Source of the DNA: a virus
Taxonomy: Duplodnaviria > Heunggongvirae > Uroviricota > Caudoviricetes
Direction: 5' to 3' (one strand)
IMG/VR virus record: IMGVR_UViG_2627854098_000005
DNA: 38,129 bases
A program made the position numbers and the translations under genes. Below are positions 1 through 32,782 of the stretch, piece by piece. The notes beneath the pieces were generated by a model. That model did no database searches. It was not told the origin of the DNA and was given only the letters and a program-made list of their open reading frames with translations. Each line of letters opens with the position of its first letter. Position 1 is the first letter of the stretch.

Positions 1-288
1 TCAATGGTTGGCGTCATTATCTTTTTCTCTTTCTGAACGTGAATATTGCGGTGGATGGTTCATCAGCTGTGGGGCAAGACGTTTTGCCACCTGAAGAATA
101 ACCACCACCGCAGCGGGAAGCATGAGCAAAACACCGAGAAAAATCATCAGAATCTGCACTTCTGGCCGAGAAAATGGCTCAGGTAGCGACAGGGAGTCGC
201 TTACCGACAGCAGCGCCACCGCCAGCAACATCATTCCGATAAATTCCAGTATCAACACGCTTTTAGGCAATTTACCGATCGCGCGCAT
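1..288 (-). CDS. ybjC: small inner-membrane protein YbjC (DUF1418), complete 95 aa
   Basis: Full ORF with stop at 1..3; hydrophobic 95-aa product matching recalled YbjC; divergent from grxA as in the E. coli chromosome. Confidence 0.75.
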   Translation of the reverse strand: MRAIGKLPKSVLILEFIGMMLLAVALLSVSDSLSLPEPFSRPEVQILMIFLGVLLMLPAAVVVILQVAKRLAPQLMNHPPQYSRSEREKDNDANH

Positions 289-447
289 ACGCTTCCCTCT
301 GCAAAGTGAGCCTTCAGTCTAAAACTTTTCACTGTATTGTGTTTAACAGTTATAGCTTTTATCAATTAATGCAACAGGTTAAACCTACTTTCAGCGAATA
401 CATTTTAGCGTGATCATTACAGGCATAAATCTATGAGGAGAGAAATA

Positions 448-705
448 ATGCAAACCGTTATTTTTGGTCGTCCGGGTTGCCCTTACTGTGTGCGTGCAAA
501 AGATCTGGCTGAGAAATTGAGCAATGAACGCGATGATTTCCAGTATCAGTATGTAGATATTCGTGCGGAAGGGATCACTAAAGAAGATCTACAACAAAAG
601 GCAGGTAAACCCGTAGAAACCGTGCCGCAGATTTTTGTCGATCAGCAACATATCGGCGGCTATACCGATTTTGCTGCATGGGCGAAAGAGAATCTGGACG
701 CCTGA
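448..705 (+). CDS. grxA: glutaredoxin 1
   Basis: Product MQTVIFGRPGCPYCV... with CPYC active site, 85 aa; ATG at 448 preferred over the upstream in-frame ATG at 433. Confidence 0.9.
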   Translation: MQTVIFGRPGCPYCVRAKDLAEKLSNERDDFQYQYVDIRAEGITKEDLQQKAGKPVETVPQIFVDQQHIGGYTDFAAWAKENLDA

Positions 706-1113
706 TCGTCTGACAAGCCCTCGCGTTGAGGGCTTTATTGATTTTTTTCTGTGCTGTGGTTTAAACAAACTACTGATAAATAAGAAACACAATGCCCCCA
801 GCGCACACCAGAACACCGCACTTAATAACCATGCCAGCTCTTGCCAGAATGAGCGCGTCGGTGAAAAAAACAGCCGTATAATGAGCATCGAACAGGGTGC
901 CGCCAGCATTGCGCCAAACAGAGGTTTCAGGACTTCTCTACGATGTGAAAAGAAGCTGGCAACTGCACCAGGAAGAATGAAAAATAGCAAACCGATTTCA
1001 GGATGCCCGGCAGCCCGAAAAGCGCCTTTCATGTGCGTCGCCAGAAAAAGACACACCACAATGAAGAGGACAAAACAGCAGATTGCCCCCGCCCAACGTT
1101 GTTTATGTTTCAC
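589..1113 (-). CDS. ybjM: inner membrane protein YbjM, with an apparent C-terminal read-through extension
   Basis: 174-aa ORF as read; the first ~123 aa are a hydrophobic YbjM-like protein, then the frame runs through the homopolymer at 742..748 and the grxA terminator and overlaps the grxA 3' end. Confidence 0.6.
   Translation of the reverse strand: MKHKQRWAGAICCFVLFIVVCLFLATHMKGAFRAAGHPEIGLLFFILPGAVASFFSHRREVLKPLFGAMLAAPCSMLIIRLFFSPTRSFWQELAWLLSAVFWCALGALCFLFISSLFKPQHRKKSIKPSTRGLVRRSGVQILFRPCSKIGIAADMLLIDKNLRHGFYGFTCLLL
715..748. terminator. rho-independent terminator downstream of grxA
   Basis: GC-rich hairpin aaGCCCTCgcgttGAGGGCtt followed by a T-run (7 T at 742..748). Confidence 0.6.
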
Positions 1114-1382
1114 TCGTTCCTCCTGACACTGCGTCTATCGAACACATTTTTCGCCAGTGTGGCGTTCAGTAAGATAAAGCCGCTTCGCATTCCATGCTAA
1201 TATAGGCCAACGCAATTCATATAGCCGTTGATACCTAATGTGATTACACTAGTAAAATATATTGTTACTTTACTATCTTTTAGGTGCGCTGAATGAATCT
1301 GCGCCCTGAATTCTGGTAAAAAACATTATCGTAAATTACCATTTCTTTCAACAGCTTACTAGTAAACAAGAAGTTAGCCTCC

Positions 1383-3068
1383 GTGAATATAAACGTCGCC
1401 GAATTGTTAAATGGGAATTACATTCTGTTATTATTTGTGGTCCTCGCGCTTGGGCTATGTCTCGGGAAATTACGACTTGGTTCGATCCAACTGGGTAATT
1501 CCATTGGCGTTTTAGTCGTATCGCTGTTATTAGGCCAACAACATTTCAGCATTAACACCGACGCGCTTAATCTTGGCTTTATGCTGTTTATTTTCTGCGT
1601 CGGGGTCGAAGCCGGACCGAACTTTTTTTCCATTTTTTTTCGCGATGGGAAAAATTACCTAATGTTAGCACTGGTGATGGTTGGCAGTGCGCTGGTGATC
1701 GCCTTAGGGTTAGGTAAGCTGTTTGGCTGGGATATTGGCCTGACGGCCGGTATGTTAGCTGGCTCTATGACGTCGACACCGGTTCTGGTCGGTGCTGGCG
1801 ATACACTGCGTCATTCCGGCATGGAAAGCAGGCAGCTCTCACTGGCACTGGATAATCTGAGCCTCGGGTATGCCTTAACCTATTTAATCGGTCTGGTGAG
1901 TTTGATTGTTGGTGCGCGTTACTTGCCGAAATTGCAGCATCAGGACTTACAGACCAGCGCCCAGCAAATCGCCCGCGAACGTGGCCTGGACACTGATGCC
2001 AACCGTAAGGTTTATTTACCGGTGATCCGCGCCTACCGCGTCGGCCCGGAGCTGGTGGCCTGGACCGACGGCAAAAATCTGCGTGAACTGGGTATTTATC
2101 GACAAACTGGCTGCTACATTGAACGTATTCGACGTAACGGGATTCTGGCGAATCCAGACGGTGATGCTGTGCTACAAATGGGCGATGAAATAGCGTTGGT
2201 AGGCTATCCCGACGCCCACGCACGACTCGATCCCAGCTTCCGTAACGGCAAAGAAGTTTTCGATCGTGACCTTCTCGACATGCGTATCGTCACTGAAGAA
2301 GTGGTCGTTAAAAACCATAACGCCGTGGGCAAACGTCTCGCACAACTGAAGTTGACCGATCACGGTTGCTTCCTTAACCGCGTCATTCGTAGCCAGATTG
2401 AGATGCCGATAGATGACAACGTCGTGCTTAACAAAGGTGACGTTTTACAAGTCAGCGGCGATGCCCGTCGCGTAAAAACCATCGCCGATCGCATCGGCTT
2501 TATCTCGATTCACAGCCAGGTCACTGACTTGCTGGCATTCTGCGCCTTCTTTGTTATTGGGCTGATGATCGGGATGATCACCTTCCAGTTCAGCACATTC
2601 AGTTTCGGCATGGGGAACGCTGCCGGGTTGTTATTCGCCGGAATTATGCTGGGATTTATGCGCGCTAACCACCCGACCTTCGGTTACATTCCGCAGGGTG
2701 CATTAAGCATGGTGAAAGAGTTCGGCTTAATGGTGTTTATGGCAGGCGTTGGTCTGAGCGCCGGTAGCGGTATTAATAACGGCCTGGGCGCGATTGGCGG
2801 TCAGATGTTGATTGCCGGATTGATTGTCAGTCTTGTGCCAGTGGTTATCTGTTTCTTGTTCGGTGCTTATGTATTGCGAATGAACCGCGCACTGTTGTTC
2901 GGCGCAATGATGGGCGCACGCACCTGCGCGCCGGCAATGGAGATCATCAGTGATACAGCTCGCAGTAACATCCCGGCGCTGGGCTATGCGGGCACCTATG
3001 CAATCGCCAACGTCCTGCTGACGCTGGCAGGGACAATCATCGTCATGGTATGGCCAGGATTAGGATAA
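1383..3068 (+). CDS. ybjL: putative AAE-family transporter YbjL with two internal TrkA-C/RCK_C-like domains
   Basis: 561-aa ORF from a GTG start; hydrophobic N- and C-terminal halves around a soluble central region; matches recalled YbjL. Confidence 0.85.
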
Positions 3069-3180
3069 AACTGAAGTTGCCCTGAAAATGAAATTTTTTT
3101 GCACAACCGCAGAACTTTTCCGCAGGGCATCAGTCTTAATTAGTGCCACTGCTTTTCTTTGATGTCCCCATTTTGTGGAG

Positions 3181-3612: not shown

Positions 3613-4713
3613 TCATTCCATTTCGAAATCATCAATCCTCACTTCAAGCTCCAGACTGGTCGTAAAACCGTTATCCGGGCTGACGGTATGTGTCAGGGTG
3701 GTAATGGTCCATTCCGCATCATCTATCGGCTGTTTAAAGCCGCTGACCTTCACAGGCATTTCCGTGTAGAGATCCGCCCGACCTTCCGCCAGTTGTAGCG
3801 AGAATGACGCAACACCGCGTTGCAGGCGTTCCCACTGCATTTTCGCTGCCCGTTCGGCGTTACTCCGATTAGCATAGGTGCGATTAAGTACCAGCACGTT
3901 TTCATCCGTCCCCACCAGGTAATCGCCCTGCTTCGCTTCCGGCTCTTTCTTCTGCTTCTTAGTCCTGCGCTTACGCTTCACCGTGGTGCTTTTTTTCTTC
4001 GCGGGTTCGCGGGTATGCAACCAGCTGGCTATTACACCCGTGTAAGCTCCGCGATCCGCCAGGGTAAAGCGGTGACTGTCGCCGTCCTTACGTGTGATAG
4101 TGATCACCGGTAGTGGTTTACCGCTGGCGCTTTTACCCTGTCCCTGCCGGATGAATAACAGATTGCCATTTTTCACCGACGCAATAGCACCGTACTGTCG
4201 CGCCAGCCGCATCAGAAAACTGCCGTCACTCTCATTAGTCTGGTCTATATGCTCCACGGGCTTATCCGACAGGTCTTTACCCAGTGCCATCTTCAGCTTG
4301 TGCCGCGCGGCTATTTCCTTCACCACTTCCCCGATGGTGGTGTTATGCCACGATTTTTCACGGCGGGTATTCAGCGTTTCACGAAAATCAGCACTTCGCG
4401 CCCGGATAGTCAGGCGGTCCGGTGCGCCAGTGTGTTCAATCTCGTCCACCGTGAATGCCCCTTTCGGGAAAAGCGGCAGCCCCTTCCAGCCCAGCGCCAG
4501 CGTAATGACCGCACCACGGCGCGGCAGCACGATTTTTCCGTCGGCGTCGTCCAGCTCCAGATCAAGCTGGTCCGCTTCAAAGCCCCGATTGTCCGCCAGC
4601 GTCAGACTCATCAGACGGTTATCTAGCACAGTGGTGATATCCCTGCCCTCAATACTGATACTGAATGCCGGAGTTTTGTTGCCTTTGTTAAGCAGTTCAG
4701 AGCTGAAATTCAT
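3613..4713 (-). CDS. D: tail protein D (P2 gpD family)
   Basis: 366-aa product, last gene of the FI-FII-E-T-U-D tail block; family recognised from sequence and synteny. Confidence 0.8.
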   Translation of the reverse strand: MNFSSELLNKGNKTPAFSISIEGRDITTVLDNRLMSLTLADNRGFEADQLDLELDDADGKIVLPRRGAVITLALGWKGLPLFPKGAFTVDEIEHTGAPDRLTIRARSADFRETLNTRREKSWHNTTIGEVVKEIAARHKLKMALGKDLSDKPVEHIDQTNESDGSFLMRLARQYGAIASVKNGNLLFIRQGQGKSASGKPLPVITITRKDGDSHRFTLADRGAYTGVIASWLHTREPAKKKSTTVKRKRRTKKQKKEPEAKQGDYLVGTDENVLVLNRTYANRSNAERAAKMQWERLQRGVASFSLQLAEGRADLYTEMPVKVSGFKQPIDDAEWTITTLTHTVSPDNGFTTSLELEVRIDDFEME

Positions 4714-5195: not shown

Positions 5196-8100
5196 GCGTC
5201 GTATCCCCCCTGATCGCTGTAGTTACTCCTGGCTTTTGCCTTCAGCCTGCGTTCACGTTCATCAAGCTGGCGGGCCACCTCCCGTGCAATATCCTGCGCA
5301 CTTTGTCCTGGCTGCGTCTGGATGATGATCTGCGTTGGTGCCTCAATCTGGTAAACGGGCGGCACAGTGACTGCGCGACTCACCATCGCTTCACCGCCTT
5401 TCGCGGGAAGCGCCAAAGGATGCAACGGTGGAAACTCTGCTGGCGCGGCAGCAACGCCCATCATTCCGGCGACAACCGCAGCCAGTGCAGCGGTATTTCT
5501 CCGGCTGGTCACGTTTGCCGGGCCATTGACAATTTCAGGCCCGTTTTCACCGACAATGCCAAACTGCCCGCGCGGGATATAGCCGCCGCGGTCATACATC
5601 CCCGCAAAGCCATATCCCCATGATGGAAAACCACCCGATGACATCATCACTTTACCGTCTGCATTCACCGTCACAGGTTGCTGACGCGTCACGCTTTCCG
5701 GCAGTTTTGCCTTTGCGGCCTCTTTACTGACAATGCCAAGTTTCTCCAGTAACCAGGAAACACCGGATTTCAGGGAGTCCAGCGGATGCATAACCATATT
5801 CAGCCCTTCCGCCAGTGCCTCCCCGAATCGTCGCCCCATTGCCGCTGCGCTCTGCAGTTCGGCAGAGGTCGACTTAACGGGCGTCAGCAGATCAGTAAAC
5901 CAGCCCCACAGCGCCTGTACTTTATCGCCAATCCACTGAAATACAGGCTTAAGTGGTTCGAATGCTGCACTGACGGGACCAGCCGCCGCTTTGAATCCTT
6001 CCACCACGCCACCGAGAAATGCGGTGATGGGTTGCCAGTATTTCCAGACAACCAGCGCCACGCCCGCCAGTGCAGTAACCACAAGACCTATCGGACTGAG
6101 CAGAGCACCTAACAGACCAGATATGGCATACAGGGCAACGCGCAGCATCGCCAGTGGACCAGATGCCAGTACTCGCAGCACCGTGCCTGCGGCGGCCAGT
6201 CCACCGCGCAGTACCGCCAGAGGATTCATAAACATCACAGCAACAGCACGTAAACCGGATAATCCAGACCGCAAAAGTGCAACCGGCGCACCTGCTACAG
6301 TTTTCAGGACATTTCCCGTCAGTGATGCCGTGCGGCGCAAAGACGACAACGGCGCAGTAAGTAAACCTGCGGCGTTGCCCGATGAAGCAAGCCCGCGTCG
6401 CAGCAGTGCCAGTGGTGCGCCAGCCAGCCAGGATAACGCGCTGCTGGTTCGAGTTACTGCTGCCGTAACGGAAGATAACGTTTTGATACCCAACACAGAG
6501 AATCCCAGACGGATCACTGCCAGCGGCCCCAGCACTGCAGCCAGCGCCACCGCTAAGGTGCCGAGGCCGACGGTAACCGCAGCCACAACAGCCGATGCTT
6601 TCATCAGTGTGCCTGTCAGTTCCGGGTTAGCTTCCACCCAGCGACGCAACGCCCCCGTGACGCTTTTCACCGTGTACAGAATATCCATCAGCGGCTGGCG
6701 CAGCGTTTCGCCCAGGCTGCTGAAGGTGTTCTGCGCTCCGGTTTTGACCAGCAACCACTGCGCAGAAAGTGAATCCTTGTTAATGTCGGATTCTTTCTGC
6801 ATGGAGCCGAGCGCATCATTGCCCGCTGTCAGTTTTAACTGACGCTGCAGTTCCGGCAGGTTGTTTGCCAGTTTCGCCGCGTCATCGCCAAACTCTTTAC
6901 CAAACAACATAGTCATGGCAGACAGGCGCTTGTCCTGCGGCAGCGCGTTTACCTTCTCCAGCACGCGCTGGATGGTTCCCATCGCATCCTTCGTCATCTG
7001 CTTTTCAATCACTTCAGGATTGAGTTTCAGCAGATTCATCCCTTCAAAGAAACTCTTGCTTTGCATGGTGGCAATGGACAATTCACGCACCATCGCGTTT
7101 GCTGCACTGGCTGCAACCTCTGGCGCAGCGCCCAGTGTCAGGAAGGTGGAACCCAGCGCCGCCGCTTTACGATAATCCAGACGGTCAGCCACACCGCCCA
7201 GACGTTGCATCACATCAATGATGTCTGCCCCTTTCGACATGGCGTTATCATCCAGATAGTTCAGCGCATCACCGAGCTGTTCAATATTGCGGGTGGGGAT
7301 TTTGTAGAGCTGGGCGATTTTCCCCAGACTTTCTGACAGTTCATCCGCTGGCAGCTCAAAGGCTGTTGCCGCCTTTGCTGCCGTACTGGCGAAGGCCAGC
7401 AGGTCACGTTTCTGATCTTCCCAGCTGTCGTCAGGGTTTGCGACGTTCATGCGCGCACCACCTTCAACCAGTGCAGCGAAGTCCACCGCACCGTTTTCCA
7501 TCGGCAACTGTTCGCTGGCAGCCTTGATGGCATCCTGCATTTCATAAAAACGTGCAGTGCGGTTGCCATTATCGTCACGCAGACCATTGACCTGCTTTGC
7601 CACACCTTTCATGGCATCTTCCATGCTGGTATAGCTTTTTACTGCCGCCATCACTGGCGCACCCATTGCCAGCCCTGCAGCCGTGGTGGTGGCTCCGGCA
7701 CCTGCAATACGATCACGCACCTCCAGCGAACGGGCATAACTGGCACGCGCTGCATTCATCCTGCGCTGAGCTTCCCCCAGTCGCTTCAGCCGCGCCTCCT
7801 GTTTCGAAAGTTCCTGGTTATAACGTGATGTTTCACGGGCTAAACGGGCAGTTGCTCCCGCATCGTCTTTCGCAGAAATTCCCGCCCGGTACAGTTCAGC
7901 ACGCACAAGCGCCGTCTGCTGCTGCAGCTTTTTCTGGCGTTCTTCCAGGCGCTGAACAGCCAGCCGTTGACGGCCCAGAGCAACAACCTGACGTTGCGAA
8001 GGCGGCCCCATCGCTCCCAGTTCCTGACTGAGCAAATTTGCACGCTGGCGGGCATAGTTCAGCCTGTCGCCTAATTTCTGATTTTCTGCCTGCAGCTTTC

Positions 8101-16521: not shown

Positions 16522-16551
16522 GAAATCAAAAGAAAATAGTGATTTTCAAAT

Positions 16552-16569
16552 TGTATGAAGGGTCTTACA
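16552..16569. promoter_or_regulatory. TGT-N12-ACA dyad, candidate late promoter element for the V-W-J-I-H-G operon
   Basis: TGTatgaagggtcttACA read directly in the short V / cargo-gene spacer. Confidence 0.4.
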
Positions 16570-16574
16570 ATCCA

Positions 16575-18407
16575 ATGAATTACAATGAAGAGCTAACCTC
16601 ATATCTTAATTATTTAGTGGATCTTGAAAAATCCCCTAATTTCGCAGTAATGATTGACGGCGAATGGGGAAGCGGGAAAACATGGTTTGTCCGTAAATTA
16701 ATGAATGAAGAATCACTAAAAGGGAAAGTTAAGCCATTAATGATCTCATTATATGGAATAAAATCCACCGAACAAATTGACGAAATAATTTTCAAGCAAA
16801 TGCATCCCTTCCTTTCATCTAAAGGCATGTTGCTTGCTGGCACACTAACTAAGGCACTAATTAAAGGCACACTTAAGATTGATTTAAGTGATTCATTCGT
16901 TACAAGTGTAGAGGGCTCCCCAGAACTACCCAACGTAAGCATTAAAGACTTTTACTACTCACCAGAAAACACCATATTGATATTTGATGATCTTGAACGC
17001 TGCGAATTAGATTGGAATTCTATATTTGGTTATATAAATAATTTCGTTGAAGAAAAAGAATGCAAGGTTTTGATTATCGCCAATGAGAGAGAAATATTAA
17101 ACCCCGCTAGAAATAAAAATCATGATGGTATTTATTTAGATGCAAAAGAAAAAGTTATAGGTATAACTTTCAAATATCAACCTCAACATTCTCACGCCTA
17201 CGAATATTTTCTAAAAAATATAACTAGCGAACTCAACACCATTCTGAACATAAAAAATATTGAGAGCTTACTCACTCTTTCAGAGTGTAATAACATTAGA
17301 TTAATTGAAAGGCAAATTTCTTTTTTTGAAAGAATATTCAAAATATTACCAGCACAGTTTCAGCAAAATTCAGATTTGACACTCAGATTATATCAATTAC
17401 ATTTTATACTCTATTTTGAATCTAATAAAATAAAACGAACCGTTTCTGACTTGTTAACATATAAAATAGATGATGATAATAAATACACATCCAATTTAAT
17501 TGAAAAATATGGTACAACTTATTTGTCAAATTTAATCTTAGACGAGGATACCTGGATCGATATAATTGACAATCAGAAAATCAATCAAGAAAAAATAATA
17601 TCTGAATTAATAACATTCGTCAGTGTTTCTAATAAAACAATTGAGCCATGGACACAACTTTGGAATTATGATCGATTAAAATACACAGAATTTGAGGAAA
17701 ATTACAATTCAACACTTCATACGCTTATTAATTTTGAAATATTGAACGAGCATGTTCTTAAGCATATTTACGGATTATTACTTCATTTATCCAGAGAACA
17801 TATAAAACCCATCAACGAACACTATTTAACAAACTTAGCCCACTCTGCTGTTGATATTTTAGCAGAAAAAGGAATGATACAAACTAGTTATGAAATTTTT
17901 GATGAAGACATTAAGGATGAGCGATGGAGAGGATTAACTTTTCATTGCAAAGAAACTAGGGAATTCAAGGAGCTTGTTAATTACATAGAACAAAAGAAAA
18001 ATGTATTAATTGCATATCAACTTAGCCAAGACGCTCAAAAGATATTCAAATTAATACAGTCCGGAAATCATGAATATTACGCACATCTAAATTTCAACAA
18101 CAAAGATATTTATTCATTTCACGACAAACCAGTTCTTTATTTTGGTGATGCTGAACAACTAACAAAAATACTGATAGACTCAACCGAGATGCATTTCTTT
18201 GGCTATGCTATAAAAAACCGATACAACAACACCCCTTATCTAAAAGAGCTTTCTGCAGAGCGTTTTTTCCACCGCGAGCTAATTAGAAAGCTAATTGAAA
18301 AGAAAACTCAAATAAACTCAAATATATTATCATTACAAATCGATGAGCTCATAAATGATTGTTTAACTCCCGCAATAGATAAATTAAAGCAAAGCATTGA
18401 AAATTAA
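16575..18407 (+). CDS. KAP-family P-loop NTPase, candidate phage-exclusion/abortive-infection protein
   Basis: Walker A GEWGSGKT and Walker B-like ILIFDDLER; AT-rich; opposite strand to the flanking late genes; ATG at 16575 preferred over the track GTG start at 16539 because the late promoter dyad lies between them. Confidence 0.7.
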   Translation: MNYNEELTSYLNYLVDLEKSPNFAVMIDGEWGSGKTWFVRKLMNEESLKGKVKPLMISLYGIKSTEQIDEIIFKQMHPFLSSKGMLLAGTLTKALIKGTLKIDLSDSFVTSVEGSPELPNVSIKDFYYSPENTILIFDDLERCELDWNSIFGYINNFVEEKECKVLIIANEREILNPARNKNHDGIYLDAKEKVIGITFKYQPQHSHAYEYFLKNITSELNTILNIKNIESLLTLSECNNIRLIERQISFFERIFKILPAQFQQNSDLTLRLYQLHFILYFESNKIKRTVSDLLTYKIDDDNKYTSNLIEKYGTTYLSNLILDEDTWIDIIDNQKINQEKIISELITFVSVSNKTIEPWTQLWNYDRLKYTEFEENYNSTLHTLINFEILNEHVLKHIYGLLLHLSREHIKPINEHYLTNLAHSAVDILAEKGMIQTSYEIFDEDIKDERWRGLTFHCKETREFKELVNYIEQKKNVLIAYQLSQDAQKIFKLIQSGNHEYYAHLNFNNKDIYSFHDKPVLYFGDAEQLTKILIDSTEMHFFGYAIKNRYNNTPYLKELSAERFFHRELIRKLIEKKTQINSNILSLQIDELINDCLTPAIDKLKQSIEN

Positions 18408-24394: not shown

Positions 24395-26161
24395 ATGAAC
24401 ACCACACTGACACCCGCAGATCTCGATCCCCGTCGGCAGGCCATGCTGCTGTACTTTCAGGGATACCGCGTAGCCCGCATTGCTGAAATGCTGGGCGAGA
24501 AAGTTGCAACCGTTCACAGCTGGAAAAAACGCGACAAGTGGGGTGACTATGGGCCGCTGGATCAGATGCAGCTCACCACCGCCGCACGCTACTGCCAGCT
24601 CATTATGAAGGAGCACAAAGAAGGGAAAGATTTCAAAGAGATTGACCTGCTGGCGCGCCAGTCGGAGCGCCATGCGCGGATCGGCAAGTTTAACAATGGC
24701 GGCAACGAAGCCGACTTAAACCCTAACGTCGCCAACCGCAACAAAGGCCCGCGCCGTCAGCCGGAAAAGAACGTTTTCACCGATGAACAGATTGAGAAGT
24801 TGGAAGAAATCTTCCATTCCTCCATGTTCAACTACCAGCGCCACTGGTGGGAAGCCGGAAAAACCAACCGCATCCGCAACCTGCTGAAGTCACGCCAGAT
24901 CGGTGCGACCTTCTATTTTGCCCGTGAAGCCCTGATTGACGCCCTGCTAACCGGGCGTAACCAGATTTTCCTTTCCGCCAGCAAGGCTCAGGCCCACGTC
25001 TTTAAGCAGTACATCATCGACTTCGCCAAAGAAGTGGAGGTGGAGCTGAAAGGCGATCCGATGGTGCTTCCTAACGGGGCCACGCTGTACTTCCTCGGCA
25101 CCAATGCCCGCACGGCCCAGAGTTACCACGGCAACCTGTATCTGGATGAATATTTCTGGATACCGAAATTCCAGGAGCTGCGCAAAGTGGCTTCCGGTAT
25201 GGCTATTCACAAAAAATGGCGACAAACCTATTTTTCCACGCCATCCAGCCTGACACACAGTGCTTATCCGTTCTGGTCCGGTGCGCTGTTCAACCGAGGG
25301 CGCAACAAAGCCGATAAGGTGGACATCGACCTGTCCCACAGCAATCTGGCCCCCGGCCTGCTGTGCGCAGACGGGCAGTACCGCCAGATAGTCACTGTGG
25401 AAGATGCGGTGCGCGGCGGCTGTAACCTGTTCGACCTCGACCAGTTGCGCATGGAGTACAGCCCGGACGAATACCAGAACCTGCTGATGTGTGAGTTCGT
25501 GGACGATCTCGCGTCTGTGTTCCCACTCAGCGAGCTGCAGGCGTGCATGGTGGACAGTTGGGAAGTCTGGACCGACTTTCATGCACTGGCCCTGCGCCCG
25601 TTTGGCTGGCGCGAAGTGTGGATCGGATATGACCCGGCGAAAGGTACGCAGAACGGCGACAGCGCCGGATGCGTGGTGGTGGCGCCGCCAGCCGTGCCGG
25701 GCGGTAAGTTCCGCATTCTTGAGCGTCACCAGTGGCGCGGAATGGACTTCCGCGCCCAGGCTGACGCCATCAAAAAACTGACCGAACAGTACAACGTGAC
25801 CTATATCGGTATCGACTCAACCGGCGTTGGTCACGGGGTTTACGAGAACGTGAAAGCGTTTTTTCCTGCCGTCCGGGAGTTTGTCTACAACCCCAACGTT
25901 AAAAACGCCCTGGTACTCAAGGCCTACGACATTATCAGCCACCGCCGTCTGGAGTTTGACGCCGGACACACCGACATAGCGCAGTCCTTTATGGCAATCC
26001 GTCGCGCCACCACCGCCAGTGGCAACCGCCCGACCTATGAAGCCAGCCGCAGCGAAGAAGCCAGCCACGCCGATCTGGCCTGGGCAACGATGCACGCACT
26101 GTTTAACGAACCGCTGCAGGGCGAATCCGCCAATACCAGCAATATTGTGGAGATTTTTTGA
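24395..26161 (+). CDS. P: terminase ATPase (large) subunit P
   Basis: 588-aa product; divergent from O. Confidence 0.85.
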   Translation: MNTTLTPADLDPRRQAMLLYFQGYRVARIAEMLGEKVATVHSWKKRDKWGDYGPLDQMQLTTAARYCQLIMKEHKEGKDFKEIDLLARQSERHARIGKFNNGGNEADLNPNVANRNKGPRRQPEKNVFTDEQIEKLEEIFHSSMFNYQRHWWEAGKTNRIRNLLKSRQIGATFYFAREALIDALLTGRNQIFLSASKAQAHVFKQYIIDFAKEVEVELKGDPMVLPNGATLYFLGTNARTAQSYHGNLYLDEYFWIPKFQELRKVASGMAIHKKWRQTYFSTPSSLTHSAYPFWSGALFNRGRNKADKVDIDLSHSNLAPGLLCADGQYRQIVTVEDAVRGGCNLFDLDQLRMEYSPDEYQNLLMCEFVDDLASVFPLSELQACMVDSWEVWTDFHALALRPFGWREVWIGYDPAKGTQNGDSAGCVVVAPPAVPGGKFRILERHQWRGMDFRAQADAIKKLTEQYNVTYIGIDSTGVGHGVYENVKAFFPAVREFVYNPNVKNALVLKAYDIISHRRLEFDAGHTDIAQSFMAIRRATTASGNRPTYEASRSEEASHADLAWATMHALFNEPLQGESANTSNIVEIF

Positions 26162-27192
26162 TGGGAAAGAGTAAGAAGAACCGCGCTGCGGCGACGAAAC
26201 AGATCCAGCTTAAAAGTCAAACTACAGCCGAAGCATTCAGCTTCGGCGATCCCGTTCCTGTTCTGGACCGCCGAGAACTGCTGGATTATGTGGAATGCGT
26301 ACAGATGGACCGTTGGTATGAGCCGCCCGTCAGCTTTGACGGACTGGCGCGCACCTTCCGCGCCGCCGTGCATCACAGTTCCCCGATTGCAGTAAAGTGC
26401 AACATTCTGACCAGTACCTATATCCCTCATCCGCTGCTCAGCCAGCAGGCTTTTTCGCGTTTTGTGCAGGACTATCTGGTATTTGGTAACGCCTACCTGG
26501 AGAAACGCACGAACCGATTCGGTGAAGTTATCGCTCTTGAGCCTGCGCTTGCAAAATACACCCGACGCGGATTAGACCTGGATACCTACTGGTTTATGCA
26601 ATACGGTATGACAACCCAGCCGTATCAGTTCACGAAAGGCAGCATTTTTCATCTGATGGAACCGGATATTAATCAGGAGATCTACGGCCTGCCCGGCTAT
26701 CTTTCTGCCATCCCATCCGCTTTGCTCAACGAGTCCGCCACGCTGTTCCGCCGCAAGTATTACATTAACGGCAGTCATGCAGGCTTCATCATGTACATGA
26801 CCGATGCGGCGCAGAACCAGGAGGATGTGAACAACCTCCGCAACGCGATGAAAAGCGCCAAAGGTCCAGGCAATTTCCGCAACCTGTTTATGTACTCACC
26901 TAATGGCAAAAAGGATGGGCTTCAGATCATTCCTCTGTCAGAAGTTGCGGCGAAGGATGAGTTTCTGAATATCAAAAATGTCAGCCGCGATGACATGATG
27001 GCTGCGCACCGCGTACCACCGCAAATGATGGGGATTATACCTAATAATGTTGGAGGATTTGGGGATGTGGAAAAGGCTAGCTGTGTGTTTGTGAGGAATG
27101 AGCTAATACCATTACAGGAAAGAATAAAAGGATTAAATAGTTGGTCTAATGAGAATATAATCCAATTCAAACCGTATACACTTGAATTCTAA
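26158..27192 (+). CDS. Q: portal protein Q
   Basis: 344-aa product; the 3' end becomes visibly AT-rich as it approaches the cargo locus. Confidence 0.85.
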   Translation: MMGKSKKNRAAATKQIQLKSQTTAEAFSFGDPVPVLDRRELLDYVECVQMDRWYEPPVSFDGLARTFRAAVHHSSPIAVKCNILTSTYIPHPLLSQQAFSRFVQDYLVFGNAYLEKRTNRFGEVIALEPALAKYTRRGLDLDTYWFMQYGMTTQPYQFTKGSIFHLMEPDINQEIYGLPGYLSAIPSALLNESATLFRRKYYINGSHAGFIMYMTDAAQNQEDVNNLRNAMKSAKGPGNFRNLFMYSPNGKKDGLQIIPLSEVAAKDEFLNIKNVSRDDMMAAHRVPPQMMGIIPNNVGGFGDVEKASCVFVRNELIPLQERIKGLNSWSNENIIQFKPYTLEF

Positions 27193-27195
27193 GAT

Positions 27196-27220
27196 AATGG
27201 GCGCCTACATAGGCGCCATT
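27196..27220. terminator. hairpin between convergent Q and cargo ATPase gene, possible bidirectional terminator
   Basis: GGCGCC-tacata-GGCGCC stem-loop with flanking A/T; no strong U-tract. Confidence 0.35.
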
Positions 27221-27240
27221 ATCTATAATAAAGACATGAA

Positions 27241-28509
27241 TTAATTTGGCAACTCCAAATCATCCTTTAGATCTTTGATATCTTGATGTTGCAACCATAT
27301 TAGGAAGCCTTTATCAACAACATTCAGTTTCCTATTTGTTTGGTCATAATCCAAAATAATAGGCATTATATTTTTCTTTATTTGCAAAGACGCCGTTGAT
27401 TGTAACGACTGAGTAACATTACCCAGGTTTAACTTCTCCCCTCTTGGATGTACACTTTGTAATATTGCCCTTATATCTTTAAATTTCAAACCTAATTCAA
27501 GTTCACTAATGGTTGATGAAAGGACAGGATATAAAATCCATTTATGCATTTGAAGTTCAGTATCTTGAAATCCATCTGAAAAATTAATAAGGAAAGAATT
27601 GTAACGAGCCGATTGGTCATTAACAATTTTTGCAATGATATCCTTTCCATCCAAACCAGCTCCAATAGTTCTTTTTGTTTGCTGAGTCTCTGATATTCCG
27701 CATTCAATACACGCACGCCTACATGCTTCTTGCACTAAATAAATACTATTGAGACAGTGTGTTACTACATCTGCTTTGAAAGTTGGATCAAAATCAATGT
27801 TAAGGAGTAAACCTCCTTTATCAATTGCCATCTCCAGTTCAGAATCTTGCCATTTGTCTGCGTTAACAGAAATAATCCTGCCAGTTAAGTCACCATTGTA
27901 AACAATGAGCCGATTATCTTCTAGCCAAACTCCAACAATTACAAAAATAATGCTTGATGTTTCATGAAAGGCTTTTAATGCGATCGAAAAATCTCTTTGA
28001 GTTTCGAAAGGCATATAATGAAAATCCTCAAGAACGATAATCTTCTTGAAATTTATAGATTTTAAAGCCGCTATAACATCATTAACATCATCAACATCAA
28101 TTTCTAAAGGCGCGGTTACTTGTTCATGAGATTTCGTATCTTCGATCTCGCCTCCGGCACTCGCCACAAAACCCAAAATAGAAGTTTTTATTGATGCGAT
28201 TATTTTATTTTTCCCCGTAATACCTTTCTTGGTAGACTGAGTTATTTCGAATCCAGCTCTTTTTAAAATACTTGCATTCAATTCAGATACATCAGAACGA
28301 TTCGAACACTGCACCAAAATATAATCATCAGAATTAATACAGTGTTTTCTTACGCAAGTCTTACCCTGCTTTGAACTGCCGTAAATAACAATATGTTTCT
28401 TTGCTTGTAATTCCTGTTTAAGTTTGAAATCAACATCAGGTCTTTCAATGTAATTAAGTGGCAAATCTCTTGAGAGCCCAAAGATATCATTCGTATCAAA
28501 AATTTCCAT
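27241..28509 (-). CDS. P-loop ATPase (AAA-like), cargo gene of unknown function
   Basis: Walker A IVIYGSSKQGKT near the N-terminus and Walker B-like KKIIVLEDFH about 110 aa later; AT-rich; no resemblance to phage structural proteins. Confidence 0.65.
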   Translation of the reverse strand: MEIFDTNDIFGLSRDLPLNYIERPDVDFKLKQELQAKKHIVIYGSSKQGKTCVRKHCINSDDYILVQCSNRSDVSELNASILKRAGFEITQSTKKGITGKNKIIASIKTSILGFVASAGGEIEDTKSHEQVTAPLEIDVDDVNDVIAALKSINFKKIIVLEDFHYMPFETQRDFSIALKAFHETSSIIFVIVGVWLEDNRLIVYNGDLTGRIISVNADKWQDSELEMAIDKGGLLLNIDFDPTFKADVVTHCLNSIYLVQEACRRACIECGISETQQTKRTIGAGLDGKDIIAKIVNDQSARYNSFLINFSDGFQDTELQMHKWILYPVLSSTISELELGLKFKDIRAILQSVHPRGEKLNLGNVTQSLQSTASLQIKKNIMPIILDYDQTNRKLNVVDKGFLIWLQHQDIKDLKDDLELPN

Positions 28510-28624
28510 TTTAATATTCTCAACGTTCAGAATTTGCTACTAAACATATAATGCTCCGCGTTTTTTTGCAACTTGTCTCGAATATTTATATGAGATTGTT
28601 CTCATATAAATTAACCAGCGCGCG

Positions 28625-28650
28625 CTCGTATCCCCGCCACGCCTGCCCGC
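28625..28650. other. cos-like cohesive-end sequence (candidate packaging site)
   Basis: Reverse complement contains GGCGTGGCGGGGA, which matches my recollection of the start of the P2/186 19-nt cohesive end; lies in a GC-rich island inside an AT-rich spacer. Confidence 0.4.
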
Positions 28651-28913
28651 TTTATGTAGTTGTTTTCATGCACCTGCATGCTCTACGCAAAAGCCCGCCA
28701 GTTCTGGTGGGCCTTAGCAATAACGATCCTCAAACGATCATGCAATCTCATGCAGTATAGGCATGCACAACAACTTACCTTAAGAAAAAACATCTGATAT
28801 GCCCAACTGTTTCGTCTCTTTTCCAGTAGCTTGCTATGGCTTATCTTTAATGCAACTGTAATCGTGTATGAAGATACAATCCCTACCAATCATAAAAATG
28901 AGGAACACAAAGA

Positions 28914-29654
28914 ATGACTGTGCACAAGCTCTCTGGTGCGTTTTTCCACGATATGCAGGTTGAGTGGCCCTGCCCTAACTGCAATCAGAAAACCCTACAG
29001 ATCATTAAAGAAAGTTTCGTCTCGTATGACACACATGATACCCGAAAATTCCGCAGTGAAGATTGGTTTGAACTAGAAATGGATTCATCTATTTTCAGTT
29101 GCATGGCCCGCTGTTCAAGAATGCAATGTGGTGAAGTTGTGGCCTGTACTGGTAAGAGTGGATGGGAACAAGGTTGGGATGAAGAAAGAAATGATATTGA
29201 GTACTATCAATGGCACAGACCTTTCACCTTTTACCCATCACTGCATCCTTTCGAAATACCTGAAAAATGCCCAGAAGAAATTACCGAACCGCTTGAAGCC
29301 TCATTTTCCATTTTCCTAATACAGCCTGGCGCAGCAGCAAACCTAATTCGAATTTCAGTTGAAAGAATGCTAACCGCTATGGATGTAGCTGAACGTAATG
29401 ATAATGGCAAACGCATAACTCTACACCACCGTTTAGGGATGCTACCTGAATTATACGGATCGTTTTCAAGACCTCTTATGGCAATTAAATTTTTAGGAAA
29501 TGCCGGAAGCCATACCTACGATGAAGTAAAAGTCAAAGACATTGAGGATGCTTTTGAGATTATGGAGTACGTCGTCAATGACTTGTTCTCCGGTCGCAAA
29601 GAATCTGTCGAAGTATTGACGAAACGATTAAGTGAAAAATTCAAAGAAAACTGA
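28914..29654 (+). CDS. zinc-ribbon protein with uncharacterised C-terminal domain, cargo gene
   Basis: N-terminal CPNC ... CMARC/CSRMQC cysteine pairs; C-terminal region with LGNAGSH motif; AT-rich. Confidence 0.6.
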   Translation: MTVHKLSGAFFHDMQVEWPCPNCNQKTLQIIKESFVSYDTHDTRKFRSEDWFELEMDSSIFSCMARCSRMQCGEVVACTGKSGWEQGWDEERNDIEYYQWHRPFTFYPSLHPFEIPEKCPEEITEPLEASFSIFLIQPGAAANLIRISVERMLTAMDVAERNDNGKRITLHHRLGMLPELYGSFSRPLMAIKFLGNAGSHTYDEVKVKDIEDAFEIMEYVVNDLFSGRKESVEVLTKRLSEKFKEN

Positions 29655-29782: not shown

Positions 29783-30016
29783 CTAATGCAGCCAGCTGTC
29801 GTCTTCCCACACCTTCTGCATAATTTTCATCACTTGTTTTCTTTCTTCGTCCAGTTGCAGTCCGGTCAGTTCCACACCGTTAGAGCTACCTTTGCGGATA
29901 CGAATTACCGTTTTTGGATACAGGGGGCGCAGATTGCGGTAAAGCTCGGATTCAAGGGCGTCCAGGATAGACTGGCTAATCTTCTGCTCTTTATCGATCA
30001 TTATTTCAATGCGCAT
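29783..30016 (-). CDS. DinI-family protein (SOS-induced RecA modulator family)
   Basis: 77-aa product MRIEIMIDKEQ...WEDDSWLH resembling E. coli DinI; start at the ATG at 30016, preceded by GAGGTGA. Confidence 0.7.
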   Translation of the reverse strand: MRIEIMIDKEQKISQSILDALESELYRNLRPLYPKTVIRIRKGSSNGVELTGLQLDEERKQVMKIMQKVWEDDSWLH

Positions 30017-30026
30017 AAAAGTCACC

Positions 30027-30215
30027 TCAACTGATGACATCCATTGAGCGGTTGTATTCGTGGGTTCTGATTTTTGCCATGAGTTCATCTGTTAGTTCAG
30101 AAACCCACTGCAAAGCCAGCCCCTTCTCTTCATCACTACACTCACTAGCCGCTACAAGCTTAAGAAAAAAATCAATGCGCTGGAGCTTCAAAGACTCCAA
30201 AAAATAGTCCTGCAT
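30027..30215 (-). CDS. small hypothetical protein, first gene of the LexA-box operon
   Basis: 62-aa ORF ending 10 nt before the DinI-like start; LexA box about 40 nt upstream. Confidence 0.5.
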   Translation of the reverse strand: MQDYFLESLKLQRIDFFLKLVAASECSDEEKGLALQWVSELTDELMAKIRTHEYNRSMDVIS

Positions 30216-30367: not shown

Positions 30368-32782
30368 TTAATACATGTTCCGCCATTTATCATCCTCCTG
30401 CAGACGCTGGTTCCGATAGAAGATACGCAGGCCTGCTCCTGACGGAATACTGCCACCGCGAAGGAGCAACTCGACCTCTTTCTCGCTGCCATCAAATCCT
30501 CTGGACTTCAATTCATAGACAAGCTGCTGTCGCTGATGGTCTGTAATTCGCTGTTTGTAGTCTTTACGCCGTTTCGGTTTCACCAGGCGTAACCTTGCTG
30601 CCAGTTCCCGGCGATCTTTTTTGCTCATACTGTGCAGGTAATCGTGCAACTCCTTGTCATTCATACGGGTAATATCCGTTCTGGAGTCCCCATCAGCTGA
30701 TTTGTCTTTCCCTTGTTGGTTCAAATTTTCAGCAAGGGGACAGTTATTGCCACGAGTCCAAGGGGCGCAAGTGCCCTGGTCGGCTGCCGCCTCCTGAACG
30801 TCAACGGCCTTACGAACCATTTTCCACTTCACTGCATGAGTGCAGATCTTGCCCTCTGCAATGGGTGACCAGATGCCATAAATACGAATACCGTGATCGC
30901 CATAGGCGGTTGGCTCTTCGTTGATTTCATAAGCGGTTCTGATGAGGTGATATTTGCGGGGAACCAGTACGCCGCCCTGCTTCATGATGTAGGTGGCAAA
31001 ACAACCAGCATCAGCAGCAGCCAGGATGGCATCAAGGCGCGGGTTATCCAGTACCGGCGCACCTGCTTTTTTGTCACCCTGTTGCCTTGCCGCCTGACCA
31101 GCCAGCAATCGCAGTTCACGGTAAGCCTGACGCCCCGGAATGCCAAAGAAGCGGAATTGCTGAACACGATGCAGAGACGCCCAGGCATTAACGTATTCAG
31201 CGTTATCACGCAGGGATTTACCCGTTTCCTTACTGATCTCGCCAGCCAGACCACGCCCGTCAATATTCTTACTGATATATTTCGCAATGTAGCTTGTCGG
31301 CGTTCCTTTGCGCGGGTTTATCAGCTCAGACTTAAAGCGTGGCCCCGTGTTATTGCCCAGCTCCTCGCGGTCTTCACGGATGGCAAACTTACGCAACAAT
31401 GCAGTAATGGCGCGGCGCTCTTTTTTGCGCATGAAACACAACAGGTGCCAGTGAACTGTGCCGTCATGATGCGGCTCAGCCACCCGCACGCCATACCAGC
31501 GCAACCCGGCTTTGTGCATAGCCTTACGAAATGCAGCAAACATGCCGACCAGATAATCGCTGCTTTGTCTTACTGTCGCGTTGGTCCAGGTCGGGTTTGG
31601 CCTGCCGTTATTTAGCGTGGAATGGAAACGTGACGGACAGGTGATGGTGTAGAAAACGGCGCAGTCACCACGCATTTCCGCGATAAGCTCCAGGCCTTTA
31701 ACACAGGCCATCATCTCATTGCGGCGATGCGCCGGGTTGCTGCTGCTGGCGTTTACCACATCCTCCATGTTCAGCGTGTCGCCGTCTTCGTTCACCAGTT
31801 CATGAGAACGGAAAAACTCCAGCGACTTACGGCGCTGCTCACGTTTATGCATCACGGCTTCATAGCTGACATAGGGAGATGCTTTTTTGCTGACCAGGCT
31901 GACAGCACGCAACTGCTCTTCCCGCAATTCGCAACGCATCTTCCATAATTTCCGATACCACCAGTCGGCGCACAGCATACGCGCCAGCGAACCCGGAATG
32001 AGTTCATAGGGCACAGGTTTGCGGCGGTTTCTTTTCCGGCGGAGTTGCTCAAACGCAGGCGGTATGACATCCAGTCGCAGGGTTTCTGCAGCCACCTTTT
32101 CCCATGTCTTGCGGATTTCTTCTGGCTTAACATCATCGGAGGCGTACAAATCACCACAAGCGGCATCAAGACACATGCTCATATGCGCAGCGACAAGGGT
32201 AGACAGGCGTTTCACCTGATCCTGACTCATTTCAGGCAGGATCAGCAGACCGTCCAGCCCTTCATGGCTTGCCATAAAACGAAAAGATGCAGATAGCTGG
32301 CTGTCGCGTACATGCTCCAGTCGTTCCAGACATGGCTTAATCGTCTCACGCAAATAGCGGGAATAAGCCTTTGGCCTGCCCAGGCTGCTGAAATATTCAA
32401 TACGTTGCATCAGCGGCTTGCTGATATGGGAAGGCTGGGCGTTGACGTCGGCCAGAATGACCATGTCCGGATTAAAACGCTGCTGCTCATGCGCCATCTT
32501 TGCCCGGCTAATGAGCTTATCCTGCTCCATTTCGCGTTGGACAGGATCACGGGATTCATTAAAGAAATAACGCTCCCAGACCTGATCACTCAGTGCCTCG
32601 CGGCGCAGTTGTTCCTGCTCGTTATCAGTAGCGTACAGAGTGATCAGGTTTGAAAGCGCAGAAACCGGCGCAACTTCCGCCGGGTCCAGATAAGGGTTAA
32701 TGGCCTTTTTCGGGCTGTTCCATGAGAATGCTGCGGCGACCTCGTTAAAGCCGCTGCAGTTGTTCATATCAGCATGGCTCAT
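30368..32782 (-). CDS. A: replication initiation endonuclease A (rolling-circle)
   Basis: 804-aa product at the P2 gpA / 186 A position. Confidence 0.85.

Follow-up and report, generated by a model that had tools for sequence, protein, structure and literature searches.

A Candidate Single-Gene Defense Cassette between the Portal Gene and cos of a P2-Family Prophage

Introduction

In phages of the P2 family, the whole interval between gpA and gpQ has been defined as a hotspot for anti-phage systems, and no distinction was drawn there between the sides of cos (Rousset 2022, PMC9122126). The old and tin genes of P2 lie on the gpA side of cos. The subject of this report is a gene on the other side. 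It occupies positions 27241–28509, on the minus strand, of a 38,129-nucleotide stretch of viral DNA (Caudoviricetes; IMG/VR record IMGVR_UViG_2627854098_000005), called the window below, and it encodes a P-loop ATPase of 422 amino acids, WP_000402159. Its place, the Q side of cos, is a sub-slot that is empty in P2 and filled in the Fels-2 lineage. The ATPase has no sequence relationship to Old or Tin. It resembles the cargo of the P2 hotspot in lying between gpA and gpQ, beside cos, where the content varies among relatives.

Neither the hotspot nor the protein family is new to the literature. WP_000402159 appears at least five times, as "hypothetical", in a published supplementary table, with differing partners such as a KAP NTPase or WP_001059831, and is not among the systems cloned in that study (Rousset 2022, PMC9122126). 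The family, PDC-S59 of PADLOC, is one of 145 "phage defence candidates" (PDC), which their authors call untested and whose prediction rests on members found inside BREX, DISARM, or type I restriction–modification loci (Payne et al. 2024, bioRxiv 10.1101/2024.01.29.577857). The paper texts searched yielded no phenotype, structure, or mechanism for PDC-S59, nor the name itself, and literature searches for PDC-S59, for WP_000402159, and for Cdc6-like single-gene defense found no characterization. An initial annotation, made from the sequence alone, offered no name for the family; a name did exist, and the novelty implied there was too high, since hotspot and family were both in the literature.

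The interpretation favored here, with a probability of roughly 0.55, is that the gene is a single-gene module directed against phages or other mobile elements and that its product works as an ATP-switched DNA binder.

Results

A Solitary Gene in a Variable Slot

The region under study is identical to a prophage of Escherichia coli APEC IMT5155, in which the same protein (100% identity) is annotated as hypothetical. Besides capsid and tail genes, the prophage carries a 186-type CI repressor, CII/CP76, a Dam methylase, gpA, terminase P, and portal Q, a gene set that places it with the 186/Fels-2 type within the P2 family. The portals of Fels-2, Cartapus, and Klebsiella phages share 90–95% identity with the window portal, that of P2 about 61%. 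The order of genes is Q (26158–27192), the ATPase gene (27241–28509), cos (28615–28772), and gpA (30368–32782). The portal open reading frame (ORF) is on the plus strand (Pfam Phage_portal, 2e-15) and stops at 27190–27192; a spacer of 48 nt (27193–27240) separates it from the convergent ATPase gene, which begins with ATG. The G+C fraction (GC) of the ATPase gene is 0.341, against 0.57 for the terminase gene and 0.515 for the bulk of the portal gene. The short gap, the GGCGCC hairpin within it, and the convergent AT-rich gene are thus as initially described.

The length and content of this slot differ widely among relatives. In P2, Q and cos are 167 bp apart with the tQ terminator between them, in agreement with the earlier remark that P2 has no gene there; the distance is about 174 bp in pro483 and about 1.4 kb in the window. 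In Fels-2-type relatives the slot spans 0.6–3.4 kb and holds differing cargo on the strand opposite to Q. It is filled in every Fels-2-lineage relative examined, and 11 comparators hold 11 different cargo sets. Among the five phages, Fels-2 carries a 565-residue hypothetical protein; RE-2010, of Salmonella, an AIPR protein annotated "prevents superinfection"; Klebsiella 4LV2017 a retron reverse transcriptase with its effector; SEN8 a hypothetical protein and an HNH endonuclease; and Cartapus a DUF4145 protein. The six E. coli prophages, chosen at even steps down the similarity ranking, are equally diverse: an Abi protein with ASCH and ATP-binding genes in E92, three hypothetical genes in C 236-04A, a hypothetical gene and an S1 peptidase in AF6, a PIN protein in ET210, SIR2 and ParA in 1604D011, and a GTP pyrophosphokinase in LR9-2. 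The RE-2010 AIPR/Abi gene and the 4LV2017 retron share the position, orientation, and approximate size of the window ATPase gene, whereas the proteins are unrelated; they indicate only the kind of gene that is found in the slot. The proposal of a hotspot for defense or accessory genes is therefore upheld as regards variability, the window gene differing from all six E. coli relatives and from the five phages, while the defensive role is an interpretation that is weighed below.

The ATPase gene itself is rare. Eleven of 5,426 complete E. coli genomes carry it, all at 99.8% identity or more, and the portal lineage is found in 1,235 of them. The neighborhood comparison suggested at the outset thus finds a variable slot, with the ATPase in 11 of 1,235 portal-lineage genomes, and a tblastn search of 50,697 deposited phage genomes gave no match. 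These counts are the opposite of what a conserved packaging or morphogenesis gene present in all relatives would give. The two sides of cos appear to be exchanged independently: strain PK5074 has kept the ATPase gene but has, on the gpA side, two other genes in place of the DUF4145 gene, and Serratia prophages have a 76% identical homolog on the gpA side of cos, with HicAB on the Q side.

Boundaries of the Cassette

A bidirectional intrinsic terminator lies between the convergent genes. It is an inverted repeat, AGATAATGGGCGCC-TACATA-GGCGCCATTATCT, at 27192–27224, with one bulged G, and its GGCGCC/GGCGCC core (27200–27217) scores as a terminator on both strands. The tQ terminator of P2 occupies the equivalent place.

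Upstream of this hairpin the portal gene ends in a variable, AT-rich segment of its last 35–37 codons or so (27081–27192, plus strand), with a GC of 0.31 against 0.515 in the rest of the gene. In bins of 50 nt, the portal gene is 82–100% identical to those of the six cargo-different E. coli prophages up to about 27057; values at the 5′ end are lower, as are several LR9-2 bins. Identity is then 72–82% at 27058–27107 and falls to 54–66% after about 27108. In PK5074, which carries the ATPase gene, the last 180 nt or so of the portal gene are 98–100% identical to the window, and it is positions 26858–27007 that are less similar (86–88%). The last 35 or so portal codons therefore travel with the cargo. 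The comparison places the left recombination junction about 85–110 nt before the portal stop, inside the portal gene, and the junction proposed earlier from base composition is borne out. Portal lengths among relatives (L112–L117) range from 340 to 347 residues. Taken with the exchange of portal ends, these lengths indicate that the C-terminus of the portal protein is a mosaic and apparently tolerates replacement.

At the other end of the cassette, 105 AT-rich bases (GC 0.28) separate the ATPase start codon from the cos core. A scan for consensus promoters found nothing above threshold at the ATPase gene. A pair of hexamers on the minus strand, TTGCAA (28571–28566) and TATGTT (28548–28543), separated by 17 nt, is likely to be the cassette's own weak σ70 promoter (28543–28571), for the pattern TTGCAn-17-TATnTT recurs at a fixed distance from the start codon in five diverged cassettes whose spacers have otherwise diverged. 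Between this promoter and cos lies a perfect 12-bp AT-rich palindrome, ATTTATATGAGA-n4-TCTCATATAAAT (28584–28611). It is present in the window and, in degenerate form, in one close relative (L124), and is absent from the Klebsiella cassette and the others; it was rejected as an operator because it is not kept in other cassettes.

The right boundary of the slot falls at 28614/28615. Five diverged cassettes all have their ATPase upstream region ending at one and the same edge of the cos core, ...GAGCGCGCGCTG. The core itself comprises 158 bp (28615–28772), and the cos regions of Fels-2, RE-2010, and many Klebsiella and E. coli phages match it at 87–94% identity. The two annotated ends of the genome of Salmonella phage SEN8 map to 28643/28644, so that the 19-nt cohesive-end sequence is GGCGTGGCGGGGATACGAG, at 28625–28643 on the minus strand; it agrees at 14 of 19 positions with what we take to be the P2 cohesive end, which occupies positions 1–19 of the P2 record. 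The site first described as cos-like is accordingly a real one. In virion orientation the ATPase gene is the first after the left cohesive end.

Membership in PDC-S59

The PADLOC hidden Markov model for PDC-S59 (PDLC05049) matches the protein over its full length (E 4.8e-72, 241 bits; residues 5–411 against positions 4–405 of 428), and the runner-up among PADLOC models, PDC-S01, scores 1e-3. By sequence, then, the window ATPase is a member of PDC-S59. It is like the family in this full-length match, in being a single gene with no conserved partner, and in the presence of some members inside DNA-modification loci. The last are Hma systems: in a Clostridia and a Faecalibacterium genome (L060 and L069, 4475–12155), a homolog of 52–54% identity stands between hmaA and hmaB, all on one strand, and the calls for HmaA, a SNF2 helicase, and HmaB, an adenine methylase, have E = 0. 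Embedding in BREX, DISARM, or type I restriction–modification loci was not seen in the loci sampled.

Other collections say little about the protein. Pfam and NCBIfam gave sub-threshold matches alone, to AAA_22 (3.5e-4; 21.3 bits against a cut-off of 27), TniB (3.4e-3; 17.3 against 22.4), and LonB. PHROGs returned a family of unknown function (1e-7), and a search of PDB sequences with a profile of 34 homologs found nothing even at E ≤10. Eight matches, mostly distant, were found among 72,556 plasmid records. The classes put forward initially for such searches included AAA+ and STAND proteins, which the structural comparisons below support, as well as ABC and Old-like proteins. An ABC or OLD-type ATPase is not supported: there was no Pfam, NCBIfam, or PADLOC match to ABC, AAA_15, AAA_21, or OLD, and the structural neighbors are AAA+ and STAND proteins.

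Predicted Fold

The AlphaFold2 model (mean predicted local distance difference test score, pLDDT, 83.6; predicted template modeling score, pTM, 0.77) consists of an N-terminal strand motif (VFGxxRDLPLNYxER), a P-loop α/β core with an insertion at residues 87–137, a helical lid, and a C-terminal helix-turn-helix with a β wing. Translation confirms the two motifs recognized at first inspection, and both are nearly invariant in 34 homologs. Walker A, GSSKQGKT, spans residues 44–51 (28357–28380, minus strand), with G44, S46, K47, Q48, G49, K50, and T51 invariant; Walker B, IIVLEDFH, spans residues 157–164 (28018–28041, minus strand), and V159, L160, E161, D162, F163, H164, and the following Y165 are invariant. 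The insertion (28099–28251, minus strand) begins with a Lys-rich β-hairpin, TQSTKKGITGKNK, whose strands are residues 87–95 and 101–108, and continues as a Gly/Glu-rich loop that is predicted to be disordered (pLDDT below 50 at 109–131). G99 and K102 are invariant and the length of the loop varies. The hairpin is proposed, from the model, as a putative DNA-contacting element.

The C-terminal half, residues 236–422 (27244–27804, minus strand), had been called uncharacterized; in the model it is an AAA+ lid followed by a winged helix at about residues 343–407 (27289–27483, minus strand). The lid motif QEACRRAC resembles what we take to be the sensor-2 motif of Orc1/Cdc6. Candidates for an arginine finger (R200 or R211) and for sensor 2 (R264) are all conserved, and the putative recognition helix of the winged helix, GNxTQxLxSxASLQ, is invariant across phyla. 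Four cysteines, C57 and C68 in the P-loop domain and C263 and C267 as a CxxxC in a lid helix, are likewise invariant in the 34 homologs, which come from many phyla, and may together make up a metal or redox site that links the two domains. The invariant H354–P355 of the winged helix could, judged from sequence, correspond to the MHD histidine of STAND proteins.

Fold comparisons identify the closest structural neighbors as PAB2304 (2qen; score 18.8) and SSO1545 (2fna; 17.8), each with about 300 residues aligned. They are followed by Orc1/Cdc6 (14–16), NB-ARC (13.7), CED-4 (13.6), TnsC (13.3), MalT (12.6), MuB (12.4), Apaf-1 (11.3), Avs3 (11.1), and BrxC (11.0). A Foldseek search of viral structures returned generic clamp-loader-type AAA+ proteins alone, with low TM-scores. 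The protein as modeled is thus an ORC/Cdc6- and STAND-like AAA+ module with lid and winged helix. Walker A and B lie in an α–β–α core that is followed by a helical lid and a C-terminal winged helix, as in the ORC/Cdc6 type; nucleotide-binding, helical, and winged-helix domains, the core of STAND proteins, are matched at the level of the fold.

Each of these likenesses has its limits. PAB2304 and SSO1545, presumably minimal STAND-like NTPases of Pfam ATPase_2 (PF01637), are only 11–13% identical to the ATPase, which has the Lys-rich hairpin and disordered loop in addition. The query did not match ATPase_2, and marginal matches, below the 33.2-bit cut-off, were confined to two distant or fused relatives; the resemblance to PAB2304 and SSO1545 is therefore structural only. 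The initiator-specific motif of Orc1/Cdc6 is helical, whereas the insertion in the ATPase is a β-hairpin with a loop. From Orc1/Cdc6 (2qby, 1fnn) the window gene also differs in being accessory and horizontally mobile, and given its patchy distribution and the presence of gpA, a role as initiator at an adjacent origin is unlikely. The immune STAND NTPases (Avs, NLR, Apaf-1, MalT) have C-terminal sensor repeats and an N-terminal effector of their own, whereas the ATPase is core-only: its 422 residues are fully covered by ATPase domain, lid, and winged helix, and neither sensor repeats (TPR, WD40, LRR) nor an effector domain was found in it by Pfam.

This compactness is general in the family. 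Among the 150 best representatives, nearly all that look full-length have 400–480 residues, and the few long ones include no fusion to a nuclease, TIR, SIR2, or similar domain. Two of the long proteins, P0240 (791 residues) and P0259 (860 residues), join an N-terminal nSTAND3 NTPase to a full PDC-S59 module and could be products of fused gene calls; one further long representative has a weak match to an α/β-hydrolase.

Distribution and Genomic Context

More than 2,300 homologs were found in a database clustered at 90%, and 363 representatives at 50% clustering have E <1e-30. Proteins 47–62% identical to that of E. coli occur in Pseudomonas, Burkholderia, Acidobacteria, Nostoc, Streptomyces, Mycolicibacterium, Planococcus, Clostridia, Hymenobacter, Deinococcaceae, Dehalococcoidia, a Roizmanbacteria genome, and two haloarchaea, Haloarchaeobius (57%) and Halorubrum (54%). 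About 110 residues are invariant in the alignment of 34 sequences. Comparison with a copy that is 95% identical gives a ratio of nonsynonymous to synonymous substitution rates (dN/dS) of 0.03; in copies whose proteins are 75–91% identical, synonymous sites have already reached saturation. The gene is under strong purifying selection and, with so many homologs, is not a chance ORF.

Its base composition sets it apart wherever a comparison could be made. In all 70 of the 80 species loci (L032–L111) with enough flanking sequence, the gene is more AT-rich than its flanks (median GC 0.42 against 0.60), and in P. aeruginosa its GC is 0.38. Such consistency is the signature of a gene that has been transferred repeatedly. 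When the ORFs within 5 kb were clustered, no family occurred in more than 8 of the 80 species loci or at a fixed position, so that no conserved partner can be named.

The prophage contexts are varied. An 86% identical homolog from K. pneumoniae occupies the same slot between Q and cos; homologs in prophages of K. oxytoca and B. glumae lie at a tail-gene junction and near lysis genes, respectively; and two of 53–56% identity (L134, L130) adjoin P2-type portals that are 58–61% identical. Flanking ORFs include a TIR effector, PD-T4-6, PDC-S35, a CAP12-type TIR, and AbiEii-like genes.

A second recurring position is beside ribonucleotide reductase (RNR) genes (loci L003–L011, L034, L046, L075, L079, and L210; the homolog begins near 8001 in most). 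A homolog lies directly downstream of nrdA–nrdB, on the same strand, in P. aeruginosa, S. stutzeri, Vogesella oryzae (whose NrdA is only 65% identical), and one marine contig, and downstream of the class II gene nrdJ, again on the same strand, in three Acidobacteriaceae. In the three proteobacterial genomes whose gap was folded, nothing but a terminator hairpin and some 25–40 nt stands between nrdB and the start codon of the homolog. In raw counts the linkage is seen in 4 of 67 species loci and 0 of 40 metagenome loci with at least 1.5 kb of upstream sequence, and in one further short contig (L210). P. aeruginosa PAO1 has a RAYT gene, PA1154, next to nrdB in place of the homolog, which is therefore accessory in that species. 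Pyocin and Mrr-like genes lie just beyond; in Pseudomonas and Stutzerimonas the stretch that follows nrdB may simply be an insertion hotspot.

Other Cargo of the Prophage

The prophage extends from gpD (3613–4713) at the left to an integrase at its right end; the host genes ybjM and an Asp-Al_Ex permease occupy approximately positions 1–3100. On the gpA side of cos is a gene for a DUF4145 protein of 246 residues (28914–29654, plus strand; Pfam 5e-13; PHROG 1305, 8e-50), with a weak PADLOC match to PD-T7-4 (1.6e-5). This is the gene replaced in PK5074, and the DUF4145 gene of Cartapus is on the Q side. Farther to the left, a KAP-family P-loop NTPase of 622 residues is encoded at 16539–18407 (plus strand) in an AT-rich island (GC 0.27–0.32). 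It lies on the opposite strand between a gpV-like spike gene and the tail-completion genes, in a late-gene slot, and its match to PADLOC PDC-S49 (E 1e-134) makes it, by sequence, another predicted defense candidate. The prophage thus has three separate cargo cassettes: those of the ATPase and the DUF4145 protein, and the PDC-S49 island. A DinI-like gene and a conserved 62-residue ORF (PHROG 698), at 29783–30215 on the minus strand between the variable region and gpA, are present in most relatives examined and belong to the backbone, not to the cargo.

Discussion

The ATPase gene is a self-contained accessory cassette, with its own probable promoter, one ORF, and a shared bidirectional terminator, that entered the slot between portal and cos by recombination, with the left junction in the last 35 or so portal codons and the right junction at the core of cos. 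If the favored interpretation holds, the ATPase would be expressed at a low level in the lysogen. Driven by ATP binding, the protein would attach to DNA by its winged helix and Lys-rich hairpin and oligomerize on it, in the manner of Orc1/Cdc6, MuB, or TnsC; alternatively, oligomerization may follow the sensing of a phage component, as in STAND proteins. The outcome would be a block to replication or packaging of the superinfecting phage or other mobile DNA, or arrest of the cell, and in either case the lysogen and its prophage would be protected.

Several considerations weigh against this interpretation. The parts that concern DNA binding and oligomerization, which we infer from resemblance of the fold, lean on structures that are 7–15% identical in sequence. 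There is no effector domain and hence no obvious way to kill a phage or a cell. Hotspots of P2 also hold genes other than those of defense. Most homologs have ordinary housekeeping neighborhoods, and the position directly behind RNR genes in three or four lineages may reflect a connection with replication or the metabolism of DNA precursors. Finally, 47–62% identity between E. coli and organisms as distant as haloarchaea seems unusually high for an immune gene, and would fit a universal substrate or a cellular machine.

The main rival takes these observations at face value: the protein would be a conserved ORC-like factor in DNA transactions or in the nucleotide pool, serving replication, repair, or dNTP supply, perhaps coupled to RNR, and in the prophage it would be a moron gene with no part in immunity. 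Conservation across Bacteria and haloarchaea with a dN/dS of 0.03, the bare ATPase architecture, the short gap of about 25–40 nt to nrdB together with the nrdJ cases, and the many housekeeping loci are all in keeping with such a role. The manner of inheritance is not. A conserved factor is hard to reconcile with so patchy a distribution (11 of 5,426 E. coli genomes, and accessory in P. aeruginosa), with a gene more AT-rich than its host at every species locus compared, or with residence inside Hma systems and in prophage cargo slots shared with Abi, retron, PIN, and SIR2 genes. The linkage to RNR is itself a minority arrangement (4 of 67), in regions that also hold pyocin and Mrr-like genes. 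A role in DNA or nucleotide metabolism is on balance unlikely, though it is the alternative to be taken most seriously.

It is conceivable, if rather speculative, that the conservation and the defensive role have one explanation. A core-only ORC-like ATPase might read a universal feature of invading or replicating DNA and neutralize that DNA by ATP-driven coating or sequestration. This would account for 50–60% identity from E. coli to haloarchaea, for the adjacency to RNR, and for embedding in DNA-modification loci. As part of the same idea, and put forward just as tentatively, the invariant winged helix may resemble readers of modified DNA.

A narrower function appears improbable. The protein might exclude relatives of its own element, namely P2-family phages or P4-type satellites with the same cos and terminase, for instance by binding at or near cos. 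The gene is 105 bp from the cos core, it recurs beside portal or cos in diverged P2-family phages (L134, L130), and the hotspots of P2 and P4 both flank cos (Rousset 2022, PMC9122126). Most members of the family, among them those in Acidobacteria, Cyanobacteria, Actinobacteria, and haloarchaea, nonetheless have no P2-type phage, cos, or portal nearby, and a recognition helix that is invariant across hosts argues against a lineage-specific site.

Still less probable is that the protein is an orphan or remnant transposition ATPase that selects targets, like TniB, TnsC, or MuB, or that it initiates replication of some small integrated element. Sub-threshold similarity to AAA_22 in 34 of 34 homologs and to TniB in 29 of 34 is what suggests it. 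No transposase, TniQ, or integrase recurs as a neighbor in the 80 species loci, no flanking inverted repeats were seen, the prophage has its own gpA initiator, and a solo gene under strong purifying selection is not what a remnant should be. An accessory role in packaging or morphogenesis, for which the position between portal and cos is the sole argument, can be dismissed, because the gene is absent from about 99% of the E. coli prophages with this portal lineage and from all of the deposited phage genomes, is transcribed against the late operon, differs from it in base composition, and has non-phage contexts in many phyla.

These findings bear on both the hotspot and the family. The gpA–gpQ hotspot is really two slots that flank cos, and the portal-side slot exchanges together with the last 35 or so portal codons. 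Should the ATPase prove protective against phage, one of the 145 candidates of PADLOC would be validated, and the family would constitute a very compact immune module, present in both Bacteria and Archaea and devoid of a nuclease, NADase, pore, or any other effector; its mechanism would then have to be the sequestration of DNA or protein by an ORC/STAND-like switch. Should it prove not to be defensive, the recurring position downstream of RNR genes would point to an unrecognized accessory factor in DNA-precursor or replication biology. Its present value is that of a well-defined and compact candidate, unusual both in its effector-less architecture and in its conservation.

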